NCBI GenBank assembly: GCA_001512495.1
Contig: LFRU01000032.1
Location: 45,765 to 109,764, forward strand
Length of the DNA: 64,000 nt
Origin: Syntrophothermus sp. DTU052
GTDB lineage: Bacteria > Bacillota > Syntrophomonadia > Syntrophomonadales > DTU052
Direction: 5' to 3'
The translations under genes and the position numbers were made by a program. A model generated the notes under the pieces. The model was given only the letters and a program-made list of their open reading frames with translations. It had not been told where the DNA came from and ran no database searches. Of the stretch, positions 3,086 through 56,719 are shown piece after piece; within the stretch, counting starts at the first letter, position 1, and each line of letters opens with the position of its first letter.

Positions 3086-4885
3086 GTGGATAATATTCGG
3101 AACTTCTGTATCATCGCCCATATCGATCACGGCAAATCGACCCTGGCCGACCGCCTGATGGAGTATACCGGAACCCTCTCCCAGCGTGAGATGCGGGAGC
3201 AGTTCCTGGATACCCTGGATCTGGAACGGGAACGGGGCATCACCATCAAGCTGACCCCGGTTCGACTGGAGTACAAGGCCCGGGACGGACAGACGTATAT
3301 ACTGAACCTGATCGATACTCCCGGGCATGTTGATTTTACTTATGAGGTATCGCGCAGTCTGGCGGCCTGTGAGGGGGCCCTGCTGGTAGTTGATGCCTCT
3401 CAGGGGATTGAAGCCCAGACGCTGGCCAATGTGTACCAGGCGATGGAGCAGGACTTGGAAATTATCGGGGTGTTGAACAAGATAGACCTGCCCAATGCCG
3501 AACCGGAACGTGTTATTGACGAGATGGGTGATGTCTTGGGAATTGTCCCCTCGGACATTATTCGGGTGTCGGCCAAGCTGGGCCAGGGGGTTGAGGAGGT
3601 CCTGGAAGCGTTGGTTGCCAGGGTGCCGCCTCCCCGGGGAGATGCCGGCCGGCCCCTGCAGGCACTGATTTTTGATTCCTACTTCGACTCCTACCGCGGA
3701 GCTATCAGCTACATAAGGGTTTTCCAGGGGCAGATCAAAAAAGGGGATCTGATCCGCATGATGGCAACCGGCAAGGAGTATGAGGTCTCCGAGATCGGGA
3801 TCTTCACTCCCCGCATGAAACCGGTGGAGGTTTTGAAGGCCGGAGAGGTAGGTTATCTGGCGGCCGGAATAAAGAACGTTCTTGACACCCGGGTCGGAGA
3901 TACCATAACCTCTGCCAAAACGCCGGCGCCGGCCCCTCTGCCGGGCTACCGCCGGATTAAGCCGGTGGTGTTCTGTGGTTTATACCCGGTGGAAAACAGT
4001 GAGTTTGAAAGGCTGCGTGATGCTCTGGAGAAGCTGAGGCTGAATGATGCTTCCCTGCAGTTTGAACCGGAGACCTCGGAGGCCCTGGGGTTTGGCTTCC
4101 GCTGTGGCTTCCTGGGACTGCTGCATATGGAGATAATCACCGAAAGGCTGGAGCGTGAATACAACCTGGAATTGATCATCACCGCCCCCAGCGTTGTCTA
4201 CCAGGTGCTGCTGGAGAACGAAGAAGTAATCGAGGTTGACAATCCTGCTCAGTGGCCGCCAATCGGTCAGATCCGCCAGGTCAAGGAACCATATGTGCAG
4301 TCCACCATAATGGTTCCCGACGATTTTATCGGGAGCATCATGGAACTGTGCCAGGAGAAACGCGGCACCTTCAAGAACATGGAATACCTCTCACCTCACC
4401 GGGTGATGCTGGTCTATGATATGCCTCTTTCCGAGATCATCTATGATTTTTTTGATGCTTTGAAGTCGAGAACGAAGGGCTATGCCTCTTTCGATTATGA
4501 GATAATCGGCTATGTAGAATCTGAGTTGGTTAAGCTGGATATCATGTTGAACGGGGAAATAGTGGACGCTCTGTCGTTTATCGTGCACAAGGACAAGGCC
4601 TATCCCCGGGCCCGGACCATTGTGGAAAAGCTGCGCCGGATCATCCCCCGGCAGCTATATGAAGTCGCCATTCAGGCGTCCATCGGCAGCCGGATCATTG
4701 CTCGGGAAAATGTCAAAGCCAGGCGCAAAGATGTGCTCGCAAAATGCTACGGTGGTGACATAACCCGCAAGAAAAAACTGCTGGAGAAACAGAAAGAAGG
4801 TAAGAAACGCATGAAACAGATTGGTAGGGTTGAAGTCCCTAAAGAGACCTTTATTTCTGTTTTGGACATGGATGATGACCGATGA
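3086..4885 (+). CDS. lepA: Elongation factor 4 (LepA)
   Basis: 599 aa. GTPase motifs [14 protein letters not shown] and NKID are present, with a LepA-specific C-terminal domain. An RBS GGAGGG precedes the GTG start. Confidence 0.97.
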
Positions 4886-6144
4886 TGGATGGAGAGAATA
4901 CCAAAGGGGGCAGAGAACGGGAATATAATCCTTCAGATGCGGCCAGGGGCCTGACAAACACTGTCCTGCCGGACGCGGCTGACTCTGGGTCAAGACCGAT
5001 GGGCATTTATATACATTTTCCATTCTGTTTACGCAAGTGCTCCTATTGCGATTTCTATTCCATCCCCTACCAGGCAGATTTGGCAGAAGAATACTGCAGC
5101 GCTCTTTGTTGTGAGATTGAGAGGGTCGCCGACCGACAGGAATGGGGAACGGCTATATCCGTTTACCTGGGCGGCGGCACCCCGAGCTTGATGTCGCCGG
5201 CCCAGATCCAAAGGCTGTTTGCTCATATCCATAGATTCTTCACCGTAGCTGCCGACTGCGAAATAACCATGGAAGCCAATCCGGACACCGTCAGCCTTGA
5301 TCGACTGAAAGCCGGCTGTGAGGCAGGGATCAACCGGATCAGCCTGGGGGTGCAGTCCTTTAACGAATCCGAACTTGAGCTCCTGGGCCGGATTCATTCC
5401 CGGGATGCGGTTTGTCGAAGTGTTGAGAATGTGGTGAAAGCAGGAATAACCAATTACGGGCTTGATCTTATTTACGGCATTCCGGGACAGGGTCTGCCGG
5501 AATGGCTGCACAATCTGGAGGAGGCCATTAAACTGGTCCCTGCTCACCTTTCCTGTTATCTTTTACAGATGGAGGAGATGGTTCCGCTGGCGCTCCGCCT
5601 GCAGAAAGGGGAGGTGGCAGCTCTGCCGGAGGAGGAGGAGTCCGACATGTACTACGCCGCTGTGAACCGCCTTAAGCATGCAGGTTATCAACACTACGAG
5701 ATCTCTAATTTCTGCCGACCCGGGGCAGCCTGTCGTCACAATCTGAACTACTGGGAGGCCGGTGATTATCTGGGAATCGGTGCTGGAGCAGTATCTTTTA
5801 AGGGCGGCGTGAGATACTGGAATCTACCTCAAATCCGGCAGTACACCCGGAACCTTCTATCCAAGGGCTCGGAACCGCCCCGGGAGGTTCTGGAATCCCT
5901 AATATCAAGGGAACAGTTGGGGTGTGATGCCATGATCATGGGGCTCAGGATGATCCGGGGGATTAATGTAGATGAGTTTGAAAAGCGATTTGGATTGCAG
6001 CCTCAAACGGCGTTTGCAGATGCTTTGCAGAAAAGCAGGGAAGAGAGGTTGCTGGAGTATCATCATCCCTGGCTGCGCTTGACCCCGCAGGGGTATTTTC
6101 TATCCAACCGTGTGTTTGTGAGGATACTGGAAGCAATTCTGTAG
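4882..6144 (+). CDS. hemW: Radical SAM heme chaperone HemW (HemN-like, oxygen-independent coproporphyrinogen oxidase family)
   Basis: Radical SAM motif [11 protein letters not shown] follows [10 protein letters not shown], and a HemN_C-like C-terminus is present. ATGA overlap with the lepA stop. An alternative start is the ATG at 4999. Confidence 0.85.
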
Positions 6145-6223
6145 AAAGCTGGGAATGAGCCCCTGGAGTCGTCCAGGTATATTGGCAGCAGGCCCAGAGC
6201 CCTGGGTTCAGGACTGTCCTGGC

Positions 6224-6252
6224 TTGACAAAGGAAATGACTGGTGTTATTTT
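6224..6252 (+). promoter_or_regulatory. Putative sigma-A promoter of the hrcA operon
   Basis: TTGACA at 6224-6229, a 17-nt spacer, then TGtTATTTT (an extended -10-like element) ending at 6252, immediately upstream of CIRCE. Confidence 0.35.
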
Positions 6253-6264
6253 CTTAGTAAGATA

Positions 6265-6291
6265 TTAGCACTCAACTCCCGAGAGTGCTAA
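6265..6291 (+). promoter_or_regulatory. CIRCE operator (HrcA binding site)
   Basis: Perfect match to the consensus TTAGCACTC-N9-GAGTGCTAA: ttagcactc aactcccga gagtgctaa. It ends 4 nt before the hrcA start. Confidence 0.92.
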
Positions 6292-6295
6292 CAGG

Positions 6296-7336
6296 GTGAT
6301 TGCTATGAAGCTGGATGAACGTAAAAAGGCGATTCTCGAAGCGGTCGTAAAGGAGTATGTTCGAACCGCGGAGCCCATAGGATCGCGAGCTATTGTCAAA
6401 AAACGCAATTTGGGGGTCAGCCCGGCAACGGTGCGCAACGAGATGGCTGATCTTGAAGAGATGGGCTTTCTGGAACAACCTCATACCTCATCAGGACGCA
6501 TTCCCTCGGAAAACGGCTTCCGGTATTTTGTTGATTACATGATGGTGAAAGAACAGTTTACTCCTGAAGAGGAGGAATACCTGAGAAATATGCTTTCTCA
6601 GAAGATTGAGGACATCTCCACCGTCATCCGGCGGACTGGGAATGTCCTGGCTCAATTCACCAATTATGCCTCGGTGGTCATCACCCCTCCGATGTCGGCC
6701 GGCAAACTGCTGCATCTGCAACTGGTGCCGGTAGGGCACAGGCAGGCTCTGGTGGTCATGGTAACCGATCTGGGCAATGTAATTCACAGGCGGATAGAAG
6801 TGCCGGAATCCATCGAGGCTCAAGACTTGGAGGACCTGTCCCGGCTGTTTACCAAAAATCTCCAGGGAGCTCATTTTGACAGCATTGGCCGTACCGTGCT
6901 GAACAGTCTGCGTCGCGAACTGCTGCATCGACGCCAGTTTATTGAGAAGGTTTTAGAAGCCATTGAGATGACCATGGGTAATGATGAGAATGAAAGGGTA
7001 TTCATTAATGGAGCCTTGAATATCGTCAATCAGCCTGAATTCAAGGATTTTGAGAAGCTCCGCAGGCTGCTGCTGGCTCTGGAAGAACATGAACTCATTA
7101 AGAGTCTGGTAAGTGAAACCGGACTGCGAGAGGTAAAAATAAAAATAGGAACCGAGAATGAGGCCGAGGAGATTAAAGAACTCAGCGTGGTTTTCACCAC
7201 TTATGTGGTTGATGGCAACGAAAAGGGCAGAATAGGATTGATCGGTCCGGTAAGAATGGAGTACTGGAAGGCATCAGCCTCGGTGGAAAAAGTCCGCGAT
7301 ATTGTACAGGAAATAATCCATGATATGTCGAGATAG
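6296..7336 (+). CDS. hrcA: Heat-inducible transcription repressor HrcA
   Basis: 346 aa. N-terminal winged helix (RKKAILEAVVKEYVRTAEPIGSRAIV...SPATVRNEMADLEEMGFLEQPHTSSGRIPS) and position before grpE-dnaK-dnaJ. The start may be the ATG at 6305. Confidence 0.95.
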   Translation: MIAMKLDERKKAILEAVVKEYVRTAEPIGSRAIVKKRNLGVSPATVRNEMADLEEMGFLEQPHTSSGRIPSENGFRYFVDYMMVKEQFTPEEEEYLRNMLSQKIEDISTVIRRTGNVLAQFTNYASVVITPPMSAGKLLHLQLVPVGHRQALVVMVTDLGNVIHRRIEVPESIEAQDLEDLSRLFTKNLQGAHFDSIGRTVLNSLRRELLHRRQFIEKVLEAIEMTMGNDENERVFINGALNIVNQPEFKDFEKLRRLLLALEEHELIKSLVSETGLREVKIKIGTENEAEEIKELSVVFTTYVVDGNEKGRIGLIGPVRMEYWKASASVEKVRDIVQEIIHDMSR

Positions 7337-25117: not shown

Positions 25118-26128
25118 ATGATGAGGTTGGTCCTGCTTACAATAACGGCGGCAGCCACCTTTATAGCACTGGTTGTTAATGGTTTGGTCTCTTATCGCAC
25201 TCCGCTGGTGGCCGCGATGGTGGATGGTTACGGAGCGGCTGTTGCCAATCTGGCTCCGCTGGAGGTGATCCATCCGGGAGGTTTGCGGGATGGGATTCTG
25301 ACAGCGGAACACCAAAAACAGTTGGCGGAGGGCAAATGGACCGGACTGAACTGGAGAGAACTGCCGCAACATGAACAAAAACCGGGAACATTGGCGGTAC
25401 TGGCGGTAACCCCGGATGCTTCAGATTATGCTGCCATCGTCAGCGGGTGCCTGGAAAAGCGGATCAAGGTGGTGGCGGAGAGTTCGGGAATGGATGCCTG
25501 GCACACCACAGCCCAGGGGTGGGTCGGGTTGCAAAACCTGACCTCTGAGGTTCTGCGGGTGGTTGTTTTCGATGGCGGCCATCACCTGCCGACTCTGGGT
25601 TTACAGCCGGACCTGCTGATTGTACCCGTAACCATGGGCTATATCGCCCACGGCCATACCCGGGATGCCATGAGGGTGGAGGAACTACTGGCTATACTTG
25701 AGCGTGAACAGATTGAATGCCCGGTAGTAGCCGTGCCCCGCTGGGGACTGGTGAAAACCACCGCGTCCATGAACCGAATTGTCATCCGCGCCCTCGCTTT
25801 GGTGGCGACTGGGGACGCAAGGCACTTCCAGGAGGGAGAGGTTCTCGGATCCCGCTGCACCAGGTACCGCAAGGCATCATTCCTGTATGTTAATTATCTC
25901 CAGGGAACGGACTGGGGTTGGTTGGAGTCCGCCAATACGGACCATGTCGAGCGCGTATACCTGGCGTTCAATTACGACCTGGTCAGGCGGGAGCAGGCGG
26001 AAGAGGTCATAAAAAAACTCAAAGGGTCAGGGCTGCAGGTGGAGTTGGCCAATGAGCCCCTCCATGTAGCCGGGATTATCATTCGGGGAGGCATGAGATG
26101 TATCAGCGCACGGATGCCCTGGTACTGA
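25118..26128 (+). CDS. Hypothetical membrane-anchored protein (no recognisable domain)
   Basis: 336-aa ORF with one N-terminal TM helix (LVLLTITAAATFIALVVNGLV). It is co-oriented with era and recO and overlaps the recO start by 31 nt. Composition looks protein-like, but I can assign no motif. Confidence 0.6.
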   Translation: MMRLVLLTITAAATFIALVVNGLVSYRTPLVAAMVDGYGAAVANLAPLEVIHPGGLRDGILTAEHQKQLAEGKWTGLNWRELPQHEQKPGTLAVLAVTPDASDYAAIVSGCLEKRIKVVAESSGMDAWHTTAQGWVGLQNLTSEVLRVVVFDGGHHLPTLGLQPDLLIVPVTMGYIAHGHTRDAMRVEELLAILEREQIECPVVAVPRWGLVKTTASMNRIVIRALALVATGDARHFQEGEVLGSRCTRYRKASFLYVNYLQGTDWGWLESANTDHVERVYLAFNYDLVRREQAEEVIKKLKGSGLQVELANEPLHVAGIIIRGGMRCISARMPWY

Positions 26129-26859
26129 AGTCATTTGATTTAAGAGAGACTGACCAGATCCTCACGATTTTTTCTCGGGAGTTGGGCAAAATACCGGTAG
26201 TGGCCAAAGGGGTGAAAAAACCCCAGAGCACGCTGCGCGGACTGGTGCAGCCTTTCTGCTACTCCCAGTTTTTCATTACCCGTTCCGGGGAGATGTACCT
26301 GATTACCCAGGGCCGGATTAATGAGTTCTTTGGCAATATCCGTGAAGACCTGGATAAGACCCTGCAGGCCATATACATCCTGGAGCTGCTGGATAAGAGC
26401 ACGGTGGAGCGGGACCCGAACCCCCCCCTGCTCGATCTCACTCTTCAGGTCTTGCATTATATGAATGACAATCCGGCGTCTTCAATATATCTGCGGTTTT
26501 TTGAGGTAAAGCAGCTCGGGCTGGTTGGTTTTGCTCCCGTGCTCAACCGGTGCTGTAACTGCCACCAGACCGACCACCTTAACTACTTCAGCCCGGGCGA
26601 GGGAGGTGCGCTGTGCAGTGATTGTGCCTCGAGAGTAGGGGGTAATCGAGTAATGCCGGCCACCCTGGCGGCGCTGCGCACCCTGCAGCAGGGCGGGTTG
26701 AAGATTATTCCCCGCATGTGTCTTTCTCCGGCGGTGCTGGAGCAGATGGAGAAGATAATGGAGGATTACCTGGAATTCTACCTGGAAAGAAAGCTGAACC
26801 TCAAACAGGTCATGAAAACCCTAAAGGCGCCAAAGGTGTCAAGGGGACGGTTCTCTTGA
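26098..26859 (+). CDS. recO: DNA repair protein RecO
   Basis: 253 aa. OB-fold N-terminus (DALVLKSFDLRETDQILTIFSRELGK) and a zinc finger CCNCHQ...CSDC. RBS GGGGAGG. The last 8 codons and the stop fall inside the left inverted repeat of the adjacent element. Confidence 0.92.
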   Translation: MYQRTDALVLKSFDLRETDQILTIFSRELGKIPVVAKGVKKPQSTLRGLVQPFCYSQFFITRSGEMYLITQGRINEFFGNIREDLDKTLQAIYILELLDKSTVERDPNPPLLDLTLQVLHYMNDNPASSIYLRFFEVKQLGLVGFAPVLNRCCNCHQTDHLNYFSPGEGGALCSDCASRVGGNRVMPATLAALRTLQQGGLKIIPRMCLSPAVLEQMEKIMEDYLEFYLERKLNLKQVMKTLKAPKVSRGRFS

Positions 26860-27234
26860 CACCATTTATGATTAAGGTGTCAAAGGACGGCAGGCCGTGT
26901 GAAGACTGGATTTGTTTCGTAATTATTATGCGTGCCAAGCACCTTCGCCGTCTTGCGGCTCGCTCCAATGTTCTTCGCCTACATCCCCGCAACTCGTTTC
27001 TTTGGGCGGGACAGCCGGCATATACGGCATCCATCCCGCAGTGCCGGTATTTCGCCATCCGTGGCGAAATAGTCCCGCCCTGGACTCAGAATAACTTCGT
27101 TGGGGAATGTAACGGCTCGTCACAACGTCACAACGTCGCTCACTCGCAAGCTAGCGAAGGGGTGTCAAAGGAACCGTCCCCATGACACTAAGGTGTCGAA
27201 AAGGTGTCACGAGAACCGTCCCCCTGACACCTTT
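26832..27234. repeat. MITE-like element: 32-bp terminal inverted repeats flanking a structured non-coding core
   Basis: The left end aaaggtgtcaaggggacggttctcttgacacc (26832-26863) matches the reverse complement of the right end (27203-27234) at 30/32 positions. Extra partial or full units occur at 26876-26890, 27161-27188 and 27192-27200. The core has nested helices: gggcgggac/gtcccgccc at 27004-27012/27072-27080, and atttcgcca/tggcgaaat at 27049-27057/27062-27070. No credible ORF. Confidence 0.7.
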
Positions 27235-27241
27235 TACGTAA

Positions 27242-27271
27242 TTGACAATCGATCCTTACGGTTGCTAAACT
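27242..27271 (+). promoter_or_regulatory. Putative sigma-A promoter of the glyQS leader
   Basis: TTGACA (27242-27247), an 18-nt spacer, then TAAACT (27266-27271), just upstream of T-box stem I. Confidence 0.5.
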
Positions 27272-27284
27272 TTAACTAAAATTC

Positions 27285-27503
27285 ATACCTGCGATGAAAG
27301 AGCAAGTAGGCCTGGAATACCTTCTTGCAGAGAGCCGGGAGGGGTGGGAACCTGGTAGAAGGAACGGGTTGAAAGGCACTCTGGAGCAGCGGGAGGAAAG
27401 CCGGAAAAGGTTAGTAAAACCCGATTTATGAGAGGGCGTTACGCCAATCAGGGTGGAACCGCGGGCCAAGCTCGTCCCTGCTATGGGAACGAGCTTATTT
27501 CTT
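27285..27503 (+). promoter_or_regulatory. T-box riboswitch leader, glycine specifier (GGC)
   Basis: Stem I start tgcgatgaaagagcaagtag. Specifier-loop context gaaaGGCa (GGC at 27375-27377). T-box motif AATCAGGGTGGAACCGCG (27446-27463). Terminator aagctcgtccc...gggaacgagctt followed by atttctt, ending at 27503. It lies directly before glyQ. Confidence 0.9.
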
Positions 27504-27519: not shown

Positions 27520-28446
27520 TTGGCGTTAACATTTCAAGGAGTAATCTTAACCCTGGAAAAATTCTGGGGAGATAAGGGGTGTATTATTCAGCAGCCCTAT
27601 GATGTGGAAAAAGGTGCGGGAACTATGAATCCGGCGACCTTTCTGCGCGCTTTGGGTCCCGAACCCTGGAACGTAGCTTATGTCGAGCCGTCACGACGGC
27701 CGACCGACGGTCGTTACGGGGAGAACCCCAATCGCCTGCAGCACTACTACCAGTACCAGGTGATCCTGAAACCATCACCGGATGATGTACTGGAGCAGTA
27801 CCTGGACAGCCTCCGCCAATTAGGAATTGAACCGGAAAAGCACGATATAAGGTTGGTGGAGGACAACTGGGAGTCACCTACCCTTGGCGCCTGGGGCTTA
27901 GGCTGGGAGGTATGGCTGGACGGGATGGAGGTAACCCAGTTTACCTACTTCCAGCAATGCGGAGGGTTTGATTGTTATCCCGTATGTGCGGAAATAACAT
28001 ATGGTATTGAAAGACTGGCCATGTATATACAAAACAAGGAGAGCGTTTACGACATCGAGTGGATTGAAGGAATAACCTACGGTGATATTCACCACCAGGG
28101 GGAGATTGACTACTCACACTACAACTTCAATGTGGCTGATGTTGAGACCCTCTTGACCATGTTCCAACTTAGTGAACAGGAGGCCCTGCGGGTATTGGAA
28201 AAGCGATTGGTTCAACCGGCCTATGACTATGTATTGAAGTGTTCCCACCTGTTTAATCTCCTGGATGCACGGGGAGCCATCAGCGTTACCGAGAGAACCG
28301 CCTATATCGGCAGGATTCGCAACCTGGCCCGCTCCGTTGCCAGGGAATATCTGGCACAGCGTGAGAGGTTGGGCTACCCCCTGCTAAAGGATGCGGCCCG
28401 CCGGGAACTTCTGGGATTGGATAAAGGGGGGAAAGTCAGTGAATAA
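27520..28446 (+). CDS. glyQ: Glycine--tRNA ligase alpha subunit
   Basis: 308 aa. [48 protein letters not shown] is highly characteristic of GlyQ. TTG start after GGGAGG. Confidence 0.97.
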
Positions 28447-45138: not shown

Positions 45139-45213
45139 TCCTCGATAGCTCAACGGTAGAGCAACCGGCTGTTAACCGGTAGGTTGTAGGTTCGAATCCT
45201 ACTCGGGGAGCCA
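45139..45213 (+). tRNA. tRNA-Asn (GTT)
   Basis: 75 nt. Acceptor stem tcctcga/tcgggga, then G and encoded CCA. Anticodon loop ctGTTaa. T-loop ggttcgaatcc. Confidence 0.93.
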
Positions 45214-45220
45214 TTAATTT

Positions 45221-45296
45221 GGGCCTATAGCTCAGTTGGTAGAGCTACCGGCTCATAACCGGTTGGTCCCAGGTTCGAGTCCTGGTAGGCCCACCA
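45221..45296 (+). tRNA. tRNA with CAT anticodon (probably tRNA-Ile2/lysidine type; elongator Met not excluded)
   Basis: 76 nt. GGGCCTATAGCTCAG..., anticodon loop ctCATaa, encoded CCA. It lacks the initiator features. The GGnCC acceptor and CUCAUAA loop resemble Bacillus tRNA-Ile2. Confidence 0.85.
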
Positions 45297-45367
45297 AACG
45301 GGAAGTCGGAGACCGGAAGTTGGATGCCGAGGTTTTCAATCCGGTCCTCGGATAGCAATAAAATCAT

Positions 45368-45442
45368 GGCCCCATGGTCAAGTGGTTAAGACACCGCCCT
45401 TTCACGGCGGTAACTGGGGTTCGAATCCCCATGGGGTCACCA
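45368..45442 (+). tRNA. tRNA-Glu (TTC)
   Basis: 75 nt. GGCCCCATGGTCAAGTGGTTAAGACACCGCCCTTTCACGGCGG... is nearly identical in pattern to Bacillus tRNA-Glu. Encoded CCA. Confidence 0.95.
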
Positions 45443-45447
45443 TAATT

Positions 45448-45523
45448 GGGCGATTAGCTCAGCTGGGAGAGCACCTGCCTTACAAGCAGGGGGTCGGCAG
45501 TTCAAGCCTGTCATCGCCCACCA
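45448..45523 (+). tRNA. tRNA-Val (TAC)
   Basis: 76 nt. GGGCGATTAGCTCAGCTGGGAGAGC, anticodon loop ctTACaa, encoded CCA. Confidence 0.94.
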
Positions 45524-56313: not shown

Positions 56314-56322
56314 ATTAATGGA

Positions 56323-56719
56323 CGCGAGCAAATCTGTAAGCGGAGTTCTGTTAAAGATAGTCATCTATCTGGGATGGCAGTTGCCTGCCACCTCTAGCGA
56401 CCCAACCCGGGAGCGGAGTGGGCAACTCCAATGCTCCCCTATTTGGTCTTGCTCCGGGTGGGGTTTACCTAGCCGACCAGTCGCCTGACCGCTGGTGAGC
56501 TCTTACCTCACCGTTCCACCCTTACCGAAAGTGGGAAACTGTATTTAGAAATCGCCATGATTAAACTAACTTCATAATGCAGGTTCCCACTTTCGGCGGT
56601 TTGTTTCTGTGGCACTATCCTTGAGGTTGCCCTCACTGGGTGTTACCCAGCACCCTGCCCTGTGGAGCTCCGACTTTCCTCAGGTCAATTTTGACCCGCG
56701 ACTATCCGATTTACTCGCG
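56323..56719 (-). ncRNA. rnpB: RNase P RNA, bacterial class A
   Basis: The minus strand reads CGCGAGTAAATC...GAGGAAAGTCGGAGCTCCACAGGGCAGGGTGCTGGGTAACACCCAGTGAGGGCAACC...ACAGAAA...GGTAAGGGTGGAACGGTGAGGTAAGAGCTCACC...AAACCCCACCCGGAGCAAGACCAAATAGGGG...ACAGAACTCCGCTTACAGATTTGCTCGCG. All universal RNase P blocks and the P1 pairing are present. Confidence 0.95.

Follow-up and report, generated by a model that had tools for sequence, protein, structure and literature searches.

Does the 403-bp interval that separates recO from the glyQS promoter in Syntrophothermus sp. DTU052 represent a single transposable element? The interval occupies positions 26832-27234 of the 64,000-nucleotide stretch of contig LFRU01000032.1 analysed here (hereafter the window). 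A first-pass annotation had described it as one miniature inverted-repeat transposable element (MITE) with 32-bp terminal inverted repeats (TIRs). The observations behind that description were reproduced: 30 of 32 positions agree between 26832-26863 and the reverse-complemented 27203-27234, and the match extends to 36-nt arms that are 92% complementary; each outer end is itself a hairpin, the two loops being inverted relative to each other; and the 403 nt are strongly self-complementary when compared to shuffled sequences (z = -9.25 for the plus strand and -10.35 for the minus strand). The single-element description itself fails, as the ends recur elsewhere without the interior, and the interior is found without complete ends in two relatives (L122 and L124; loci fetched for comparison carry the prefix L). 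The interval is instead very likely a nest, consisting of an old hairpin resembling repetitive extragenic palindromes (REPs), a truncated MITE with a TwoAYGGAY RNA structure in the loop of that hairpin, and three younger hairpin units. A mobile element, a REP-like family and an unrecognised structured RNA had been listed as options; each is right in part, for a different layer, and none for the interval as a whole.

Layers of the recO-glyQS interval

The first layer encountered from the recO side is a complete REP-like unit (unit 1, AAAGGTGTCAAGGGGACGGTTCTCTTGACACCATTTA, 26832-26868, plus strand), defined by pattern match and arms and absent in relatives. The recO stop lies inside it, as had been noted. 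It is followed by the 5' half of an older unit (AAGGTGTCAAAGGACGG, 26874-26890, plus strand), the loop of which is split by the inner element at a junction common to relatives. The truncated inner MITE copy (26891-27160, minus strand) is 81-88% identical over 241-272 bp to dispersed copies, and its sole remaining TIR (CAGGCCGTGTGAAGAC, 26891-26906, plus strand) is one base off the consensus CAGGCYGTGTGAAAAC. Most of this copy forms a long imperfect RNA/DNA rod (26942-27160, minus strand; arms 26942-26957 and 27145-27160) ending in the two-hairpin tip of the TwoAYGGAY family (27009-27075, minus strand). Of the internal pairings listed previously, the 9-bp helix 27004-27012 / 27072-27080 is perfect, as is the hairpin 27048-27057 / 27062-27071, over 10 bp. 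The reported tandem at 27120-27136 is a real 8-bp duplication (GTCACAAC twice) in one rod arm, present in the window row only of our alignments. Unit 2 (27158-27192, minus strand, core 27161-27189; pattern match) is complete, adjoins the truncated end of the MITE and is absent from L122 and L124. A partial stem copy (AAGGTGTCGAA, 27190-27200), belonging to a direct-repeat family with a 42-nt period, links it to unit 3 (27199-27236, minus strand, core 27203-27231; pattern match and arms), which is complete and corresponds to what had been read as the right TIR. The smaller repeat units described inside both ends are thus accounted for: 26874-26890 is a genuine half unit, 27161-27189 is a unit in full, and 27190-27200 holds part of a stem.

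Comparison to relatives reveals how recent each layer is. The exact RecO sequence of the window was found in a Syntrophomonadaceae metagenome-assembled genome (MAG; GCA_012727575.1) and in many metagenomes from digesters, the organism being represented in 228 sample blocks. From recO to glyQ (1.4 kb), a single nucleotide polymorphism (SNP) at 27035 is all that distinguishes five assemblies of the window species; the base is C in the window, L117, L119 and L121 and G in L118 and L120. At the junctions of L122 and L124 (RecO 90% and 88% identical to that of the window), a ~230-bp core is present in the window orientation with no complete hairpin unit. L130 (82%) also has the window orientation, and its contig ends inside the element, whereas in L126 and L134 (both 81%) the entire interior is inverted. 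The L130 assembly stops at position 3385, at the 9-bp helix, as expected of multi-copy or palindromic sequence.

More distant relatives lack the core. In L131 (76%) the recO stop is followed by ~47 bp and the glyQS -35 box ATTGACAAT; in L132 (71%) the stop overlaps this box, and in L133 (64%) the box follows shortly after the stop. These three are empty sites (RecO at most 76% identical), and the earlier view of the stretch as an insertion between recO and the glyQS promoter is upheld. The ATTGACAAT box is invariant in all relatives and forms the right border of every insertion at the junction. In L128 (75%), also without a core, a different palindrome of ~50 nt is found at the same junction (GAGTGCATCACTGCATCAGGGGGACTGTCCCCATGATGCACTC, ~45 nt at L128:3245-3290), part of which, TCAGGGGGAC, is similar to the window hairpin units; hairpin repeats seem to have landed at the recO-glyQS junction more than once.

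Unit 1 is missing in L122, L124, L126, L130 and L134 and is therefore a recent gain; all three complete units are confined to the window lineage and form the most recent layer. The presence of the core without complete units in close relatives, and its absence from distant ones, means that the whole stretch is an insertion assembled in steps. In the ancestor of this Syntrophomonadaceae clade one old REP-like unit lay directly behind recO, and the ~325-bp MITE inserted into its loop, between GGGGACGG and TTC. The glyQS-side end of the MITE was then lost, a loss common to the window and its two closest relatives. Three new hairpin units were added afterwards, two of them in tandem on the glyQS side and one next to recO, where it replaced the last codons and stop and gave RecO a tail eight residues longer. 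This order of events is shown by the loci compared, as are the anatomy, the copy numbers, the empty sites and the conserved, covarying structure; the enzymes that move each layer and any function of the RNA are inferred.

The consequence for RecO is visible in its C-terminus. The window protein has 253 aa and ends in ...TLKAPKVSRGRFS, while those of relatives have 245-247 aa, with C-termini of the type ...TLKKF/KKP/KKS at 245 aa. Unit 1 encodes the last ~9 recO codons and the TGA, as the first-pass annotation had recognised, so that the ancestral ...KKF/KKP/KKS-stop is replaced by ...KAPKVSRGRFS-stop. The changed tail lies outside the RecO_C domain (residues 82-234), and its odd extra length is explained by the composite. 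The window copy of the MITE retains a single end, and its RNA strand shows no recognisable promoter. Most likely this copy is a relic that no longer moves and that probably has little effect on recO and glyQS.

The interval is set between ordinary genes and signals. The recO open reading frame (ORF) spans 26098-26859 (plus strand; RecO_N and RecO_C over residues 1-234), its TGA occupying 26857-26859. Directly downstream of the interval, and in agreement with the earlier description, lie a glyQS promoter-like site (TTGACA-18-TAAACT with TG, 27242-27271, plus strand, from a consensus scan) and, outside the repeats, the glyQS T-box leader (27285-27482, plus strand; Rfam RF00230, 94.8 bits), with the glyQ start at 27520. 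An RNase P RNA of class A (320.5 bits, window 56321-56717, minus strand) and a cluster of four tRNA genes (window 45139-45520, plus strand) are unrelated to the interval.

The hairpin repeat and adjoining Y1 transposase genes

The repeat unit is ~35 nt long, AAA-GGTGTCA-AGGGGACGGTTCTC-TGACACC-TTT, with a stem of 7-10 bp (GGTGTCA/TGACACC) and a conserved, asymmetric loop, GGGGACGGTTC. When as many as 3 mismatches are allowed, the pattern GGTGTCANNGGGACGGTTCNCNTGACACC occurs in the 64-kb window at 26835 (plus), 27161 (minus) and 27203 (minus) only, compared with 0.00 occurrences in shuffled sequences. The search form GGTGTCA-NN-GGGACGGTTC-NNN-TGACACC likewise yields three units in the window, all in this interval, and a loop-motif scan of the window found no further copy, for a total of 3.5 units. 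The pairs 26835/26877 and 27161/27203 each have a 42-nt period.

Outside the window the unit is widespread. Its 20 specified bases, used to scan a collection with a single genome for each species, retrieved at least 116 loci. Hosts among the matches listed include Pelotomaculum propionicicum (at least 14 loci), Syntrophomonas palmitatica, S. zehnderi, Desulforamulus aeronauticus and many Lachnospiraceae, Oscillospiraceae and other Clostridia MAGs, as well as a few MAGs labelled Coriobacteriaceae, Actinomycetaceae or Tannerella. A blastn search with the ends and the whole 403 bp had been proposed as a check: the ends recur at these loci, whereas matches of the 403 bp are confined to the ~30-36-nt unit, and none of those listed covers the interior.

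Base frequencies at 156 units show that conservation ends at ~35 nt. The consensus runs from an A-run through two covarying stem positions, GTGTCA, the loop (A)GGGGACGGTTCTYT and TGACAC to a T-run, the covarying positions being those that extend the stem. Units are found as singlets, as convergent plus/minus pairs 15-50 nt apart, and as tandems with a 31-52 nt period. Open frames of at least 200 codons hold 31 of 157 units, compared to 75% of random positions; put differently, 80% of units lie outside long open frames, as opposed to 25% of random positions. A scan for terminator-like structures also flags unit 1 (26835-26863). Within the unit, CGTC is seen only in the loop, on the complementary strand. 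We use the term REP-like rather than REP because the units are without the GTAG head of classical REPs. Searching the literature for the loop sequences GGGACGGTTC and GAACCGTCCC returned unrelated primer matches only.

Clustering of ORFs over the at least 116 loci identified one repeat-linked family, consisting of ~250-aa proteins with YHIxxRG and HxHLL motifs. The corresponding Y1_Tnp gene adjoins units at six loci among those listed. Inverted units bracket the gene in L025 (unit at 5462 plus, gene 5517-6302, unit at 6279 minus), in L104 (563 plus, 621-1367, 1370 minus) and likewise in L100. A unit lies ~30 bp upstream of the gene in L042 and L099, and the L020 gene is truncated. The proteins match Pfam PF01797 and reach 69.8 bits (E = 2e-19) with NCBIfam NF047646, 'REP-associated tyrosine transposase' (RAYT), under its 80-bit cut-off. 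Matches of residues ~193-247 to C-terminal helix-turn-helix (HTH) families are weak and sub-threshold (HTH_26, HTH_24, HTH_ParB; E = 0.02-0.1).

It is this bracketing of an IS200-like Y1 gene of RAYT/TIRYT type that leads us to call the repeat REP-like, and the layout of gene and repeat is that of a REPtron/TIRtron. By analogy, an IS200-like Y1 (HUH) transposase would spread the hairpin via its single-stranded DNA form. The L025 protein is only 32-35% identical to those of L104, L042 and L100 despite the common 20-base hairpin core; judged by these comparisons, the hairpin is far more conserved than the presumed enzyme, unlike the species-specific REPs of Proteobacteria. As a separate possibility, the interior of the interval was considered as a decayed Y1 transposase gene, and rejected: tblastn with a RAYT-like protein gave no match in the window at E <= 1.

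The inner element and its TwoAYGGAY core

Scanning metagenomes with the 20-nt first hairpin of the core retrieved at least 118 loci, and the whole element is present at 12 loci among the matches listed, representing at least 9 distinct sites. Contig Ga0208297_1000008 (685 kb) carries three copies and Ga0208297_1000192, which also holds the L126 recO locus, carries two. Copies are 77-95% identical to one another, and every one is intergenic, with spurious ORFs only. The element is ~325 bp long, with 16-nt inverted ends (CAGGCYGTGTGAAAAC) and 4-bp direct repeats. Both ends are present in six copies (L126, L184, L142, L166, L203 and L234). The window copy keeps the 26891-26906 end alone, ~60-70 bp including the second end being gone on the glyQS side, and the second end is likewise gone in L122 and L124. 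Hence, a non-autonomous element is indeed present, as had been suggested, although its boundaries are 26891 to ~27160 and one of its ends is missing.

The sites occupied by the MITE point to the hairpin repeat as its target. The L126 interior has CAGGCCGTGTGAAAAC and GTTTTCACACGGACTG at its two ends, themselves located between GGTGTCAAGGTGACGG and ACGGTTCTGTTGACACC; taking out the insert and one ACGG rebuilds a hairpin unit, GGTGTCAAGGTGACGG|ACGGTTCTGTTGACACC, with one mismatch to the search pattern. The junction ...GACGG|CAGGCCGTGTG is the same in the window (26874-26890 | 26891-26906), L126, L127 and L130, with the other half, ACGGTTCTGTTGACACC, found at the far end of the element in L126. 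Rejoining the flanks gives GGCAAAAGAACGT | ACGTCCCCATGCC for L184, CAAACAAGAAAACCGT|CCGTCCCCTTGTTTG for L166 and GGCAAAAGAAGCGC | GCGCCCCCATGCC for L142; the rebuilt hairpins differ in their stems and are alike in the kind of loop. In total, REP-like hairpins hold ~7 of 9 sites, and the junction there shows a 4-bp repeat (ACGG in L126, CCGT in L166, ACGT in L184 and GCGC in L142). Of the insertion signs that the first-pass annotation proposed to look for, empty sites were thus found, and short direct repeats surround copies of the inner MITE.

The MITE looks clade-restricted, since a custom scan for two-AYGGAY hairpin pairs beside REP-like units found none outside recO loci among the at least 116 repeat loci listed. 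The full L126 element gave no blastn match in phage and plasmid collections. At L221:2470-2730, in an imuB-dnaE2 spacer, the decoration is of the kind seen in the window: a complete hairpin unit stands in place of one of the inverted MITE ends, and the other end adjoins a 'half hairpin - TTAATCAYARAT - full hairpin' doublet that is 84% identical over 62 nt to window 26832-26906, and CTGACACC is repeated three times. Hairpin units may overwrite MITE ends systematically. Part of the 3' arm is repeated locally at L122:3500-3580, and a ~28-nt tandem duplication of the 5' arm at L148:4742-4806 is not present in L155 or L170, which share that site; the arms of the element appear prone to slippage.

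The orientation of the element varies at fixed sites. In the window, L122, L124 and L130 the RNA strand lies antisense to recO, and in L126 and L134 it has the sense direction; L130 and L126 are mutually closest RecO relatives (89% identity). The same holds at a second locus, the imuB-like/dnaE2-like spacer, where L221 and L234 are orthologous by their flanks and the element is oppositely oriented. The hairpin halves stay in place while the orientation of the element differs. Furthermore, the L126 copy is 94% identical to paralogues of the same sample compared with 91% to the orthologous L134 copy. The flips are best explained, in our view, by an element that was repeatedly excised and re-inserted at a preferred hairpin target, or by copies exchanging with one another; inversion through the 16-nt ends is a less favoured possibility. 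The window copy lacks one inverted repeat and is therefore incapable of flipping.

The tip of the rod reads, on the minus strand, UAUUUCGCC-ACGGAU-GGCGAAAUA followed by CCGGCA..GCGG-GAUGGAUG-CCGU..UGCCGG, and is enclosed by the 9-bp helix (GGGCGGGAC/GUCCCGCCC) plus the long arms. This core corresponds to Rfam family RF01731 (TwoAYGGAY; gathering threshold 43 bits). The window copy itself gives a local match below threshold (27009-27075, minus strand; 24 bits, E = 0.29), while other copies pass the threshold over model positions 1-168 of 168: L126/L202 with 47.9 bits, L166 with 46.5 and L142 with 44.5. L134 (37.5 bits), L122 (30) and L124 (29.8) also remain below. The loop of hairpin 1 is ACGGAU (AUGGAU in L134), in keeping with the AYGGAY loops that define membership. 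For hairpin 2 the window has AUGGAU, and relatives have AUGGAC or AUGGAG, so that the final base of this loop is not always Y. An outer stem around both hairpins is present, as RF01731 requires. A structured RNA had thus been rightly suspected, but it is not an unrecognised one, and the Rfam scan that had been called for assigns the core, below threshold, to RF01731 and the ends and arms to no family, all remaining matches being weak noise of the miRNA-hairpin type.

A consensus fold of 11 copies is a 78-pair rod tipped by two hairpins, in which 9 of the 78 pairs show changes on both sides. Pairing is kept in 97.5% of cells, as opposed to 36-49% when partners are slid; the slid controls have 0-2 pairs with two-sided changes, and none of 500 shuffles reached the observed values of pairing or covariation. 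These values demonstrate that the fold is maintained but, the 11 sequences being related copies of one element, provide no independent evidence of function. On the Rfam strand G-U pairs outnumber A-C mismatches 17 to 8 in five orthologues and ~30 to 8 in the eleven copies, an excess that fits this strand in a test that is biased because the structure was predicted on it. The core is more conserved than the regions beside the inverted ends, and is kept with compensatory changes in the end-deficient copies (window, L122 and L124). With G at 27035, hairpin 2 regains a C-G pair (GCGGC...GCCGU) that all relatives have.

The consensus scan for promoters yielded, besides that of glyQS, one weak L126 site, GTGAAA-16-TATTAT, which faces inward on the strand opposite the RNA. 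All copies keep TATTATTATGC beside one inverted end, with the GTGAAA derived from the end itself (L126:3544-3571, minus strand; window ~26897-26935, plus strand). Together they form an inward promoter-like site with 9 of 12 matches, again on the strand opposite the TwoAYGGAY RNA. CsrA binding via the GGA loops has been proposed for TwoAYGGAY (Gardner and Eldai, PMC4333381). Searching the fetched sequences for CsrA/FliW genes gave a single match, at the unrelated locus L108, a result that is silent on the source genome.

The metagenome scan also uncovered a broader group of RNAs. Some 106 of the 118 listed matches to the 20-mer TTTCGCCAYGGATGGCGAAA (at least 118 loci) differ from the Syntrophomonadaceae element. 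They are located on metagenome contigs, many of them TARA marine (L135-L252, e.g. L135:973-992, L146:4370-4551, L139, L152 and L189). Most of those inspected share a design of an outer stem, an identical first hairpin and a second hairpin with a CAGGGAUG or CAUGGAUG loop, and some are arranged as inverted pairs ~165-200 nt apart. Only L140 passes the RF01731 threshold among 16 loci tested, and joint alignment of the Clostridial cores and the marine two-hairpin RNAs is poor on the 3' side. From its sequences, this looks like a large, mostly unannotated TwoAYGGAY-like family, with loops matching the CsrA consensus CARGGAUG.

Alternative explanations and relation to known systems

Several results weigh against the nest or against parts of it. 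The GTAG head was sought in the unit base frequencies and not found, the 5' side being AAA-NN-GTGTCA, and the 64-kb window contains no Y1 transposase gene. With respect to the MITE, a simple split hairpin does not account for the irregular flanks of L203 and L234, and the site common to L155, L170 and L148 lies outside any hairpin. ACGT and GCGC are self-complementary, and in these two cases a target duplication is indistinguishable from a longer inverted end. No autonomous element with the ends of the MITE was found among the 252 fetched loci. Judging by its inverted ends and short duplications, the MITE may be mobilised in trans by a DDE-type transposase. As to the RNA, the consensus scan found no promoter or terminator on the minus strand of the window, and no conserved promoter upstream of the core in the window, L124 and L126.

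The alternatives fare worse. A single 403-bp MITE with 32-bp TIRs, inserted whole into the 3' end of recO, would account for the inverted ends with their 30/32 match, for the strong folding of the entire stretch and for its being an insertion relative to distant relatives; it is nevertheless barely tenable, as the listed loci carrying the ends (at least 116) do not carry the interior, the interior lies without complete end units in L122/L124 and between different ends in L126/L134, the ends are found elsewhere alone, in tandem or around Y1 genes, and other copies of the interior are bounded by a different pair of inverted ends. One might also regard the ~35-nt hairpins as functional sites that arose in place, i.e. 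bidirectional terminators, mRNA stabilisers or protein-binding sites, rather than as mobile DNA. The REPs of other bacteria are known to have such secondary roles, the A-run before and T-run after the hairpin would suit a terminator, and the left unit is scored as terminator-like. Identity of the 20-base core across distant families, a conserved asymmetric loop for which a terminator has no need, the tandem and inverted arrays, the bracketing of Y1 transposase genes, and the differing presence of units between close relatives at one site together render this improbable. Even less probable is a programmed invertible switch (inverton), flipped by a recombinase and controlling glyQS or recO. The 16-nt inverted repeats that bound the element, the orientation differences between related species at both the recO-glyQS and imuB-dnaE2 loci, and the L130 contig breaking inside the element speak for such a switch; what makes it so unlikely is that the five assemblies of the window species show one orientation, with a single-base difference, and that no recombinase gene is adjacent. 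In addition, no outward-facing promoter was found by the consensus scan, and re-insertion explains the flips equally well while also explaining the greater closeness of L126 to its paralogues.

A more substantial challenge concerns the core, which could primarily be a host small RNA (sRNA) gene, encoding a TwoAYGGAY RNA and putative CsrA binder that is selected here and expressed from the minus strand, with the repeats incidental. The core is the best-conserved part of all copies and shows compensatory changes even after end loss, its loops (ACGGAU/AUGGAU and AUGGAN) fit the CsrA-site proposal (PMC4333381), and the change from C to G at the polymorphic position 27035 regains a base pair of hairpin 2 within the population. 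On the other hand, the core sequence is that of a dispersed multi-copy element with inverted ends and target duplications, its orientation relative to neighbouring genes flips between species, and CsrA binding by the family is a proposal only. The minus strand has no detected promoter or terminator here and the upstream sequence differs among the window, L124 and L126; for these reasons an expressed functional RNA at the window locus is possible but not likely. We thus consider the host sRNA gene unlikely, while granting it appreciably more weight than the other alternatives, and retain the nest of hairpins and truncated MITE as the explanation of the locus. With regard to the element as a whole, the TwoAYGGAY RNA of these Syntrophomonadaceae might be a cargo under selection, carried by a self-spreading MITE with REP-like loops as its homing sites, or a folding core that the MITE needs for its movement, a suggestion we make tentatively and rate only slightly above the sRNA gene. 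If true, a GGA-loop RNA (possibly a CsrA decoy) would be copied by transposition and would re-occupy hairpin hot spots in either orientation, persisting as a conserved structure after a copy has lost its ends. It is also possible that the two repeat systems interact, with REP-like hairpins acting as landing pads and later units overwriting MITE ends, as in the window and L221.

The hairpin repeat resembles the REP/BIME/REPIN repeats and RAYT (TnpA-REP) genes of Proteobacteria in being a short extragenic palindrome with many copies in singlets, inverted pairs and clusters, and in that inverted units flank a single IS200-like Y1 HUH gene and units may overlap gene ends. Unlike these, it has no GTAG/CGTC head tetranucleotide and its loop is the conserved part; its 20-base core is common to many Clostridia families, whereas classical REPs are species-specific, and its protein scores below the NCBIfam RAYT cut-off (69.8 vs 80 bits). 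The closest published description of the hairpin/Y1 system is the TIRYT class. In TIRtrons, RAYT-like Y1 genes are flanked by inverted repeats with the flank motif GGGGWSAS, and the repeats may be self-complementary, form dimers or clusters and constitute moderate repeat families (Di Nocera 2013, PMC3733652). The class corresponds to TnpA-REP subclass 2.1, with a C-terminal HTH, and no REP partners were reported for the RAYT/TIRYT-type group (Quentin 2018, PMC6006769). The unit loop GGGGACGG matches GGGGWSAS at 7 of 8 positions, and the C-terminal tails of the ~250-aa proteins give weak, sub-threshold matches to HTH families. The main texts of both papers (PMC3733652 and PMC6006769) mention neither Firmicutes members nor the hairpin sequence. 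A hairpin repeat with a 20-base core across many Clostridia families is hereby newly linked to RAYT/TIRYT-type genes.

Insertion into REP loops is a property of the insertion sequence IS1397. In aiming at REP hairpins and generating a short target duplication, the inner MITE is like IS1397, ISKpn1, ISPpu9 and ISPpu10, but it is a non-coding element of ~325 bp in Syntrophomonadaceae, whereas those are autonomous, transposase-encoding elements of Proteobacteria. Copies of ISPpu9 have been described inside REPs (PMC8450116). The element studied here would thus be a non-proteobacterial case of REP-hairpin-directed insertion. It also resembles ERIC/IRU, Correia (NEMIS) and RUP, which are likewise small, non-coding and bounded by inverted ends, and form long hairpins. 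These are intergenic and co-transcribed with their neighbours; to our knowledge, none of them has a recognised Rfam-type RNA core with conserved loop motifs or has been reported to target REP loops.

The core shares with TwoAYGGAY (RF01731; Weinberg 2010, PMC2864571) two adjacent AYGGAY-loop hairpins within an outer stem and an occurrence in Clostridia. The papers found describe the family as a free-standing candidate sRNA, while here the structure is the core of a TIR-bounded multi-copy element, with a window copy of 24 bits. GGA motifs in hairpin loops are also typical of the CsrA-sequestering sRNAs of the CsrB/RsmZ type, which differ in that the present RNA offers two sites only and its CsrA link is a published hypothesis. 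We know of no CsrA-titrating RNA that is a mobile element.

A limited literature search found no mention of TwoAYGGAY as the core of a hairpin-targeting MITE. The family hence gains a genomic context, that of a multi-copy element with inverted ends inside hairpin loops, which opens expression, CsrA binding and mobility to testing. Its conservation and covariation need to be re-read, because copies of a mobile element are not independent orthologues. For annotation, an apparent 403-bp transposon resolves into REP-type hairpins, a MITE remnant and a known RNA family. The kinds of component are already known, namely REP/RAYT-like repeats, MITEs, REP-targeting insertion and RF01731; new is their combination, in which an RNA motif recognised as an orphan since 2010 forms the core of a hairpin-targeting MITE.

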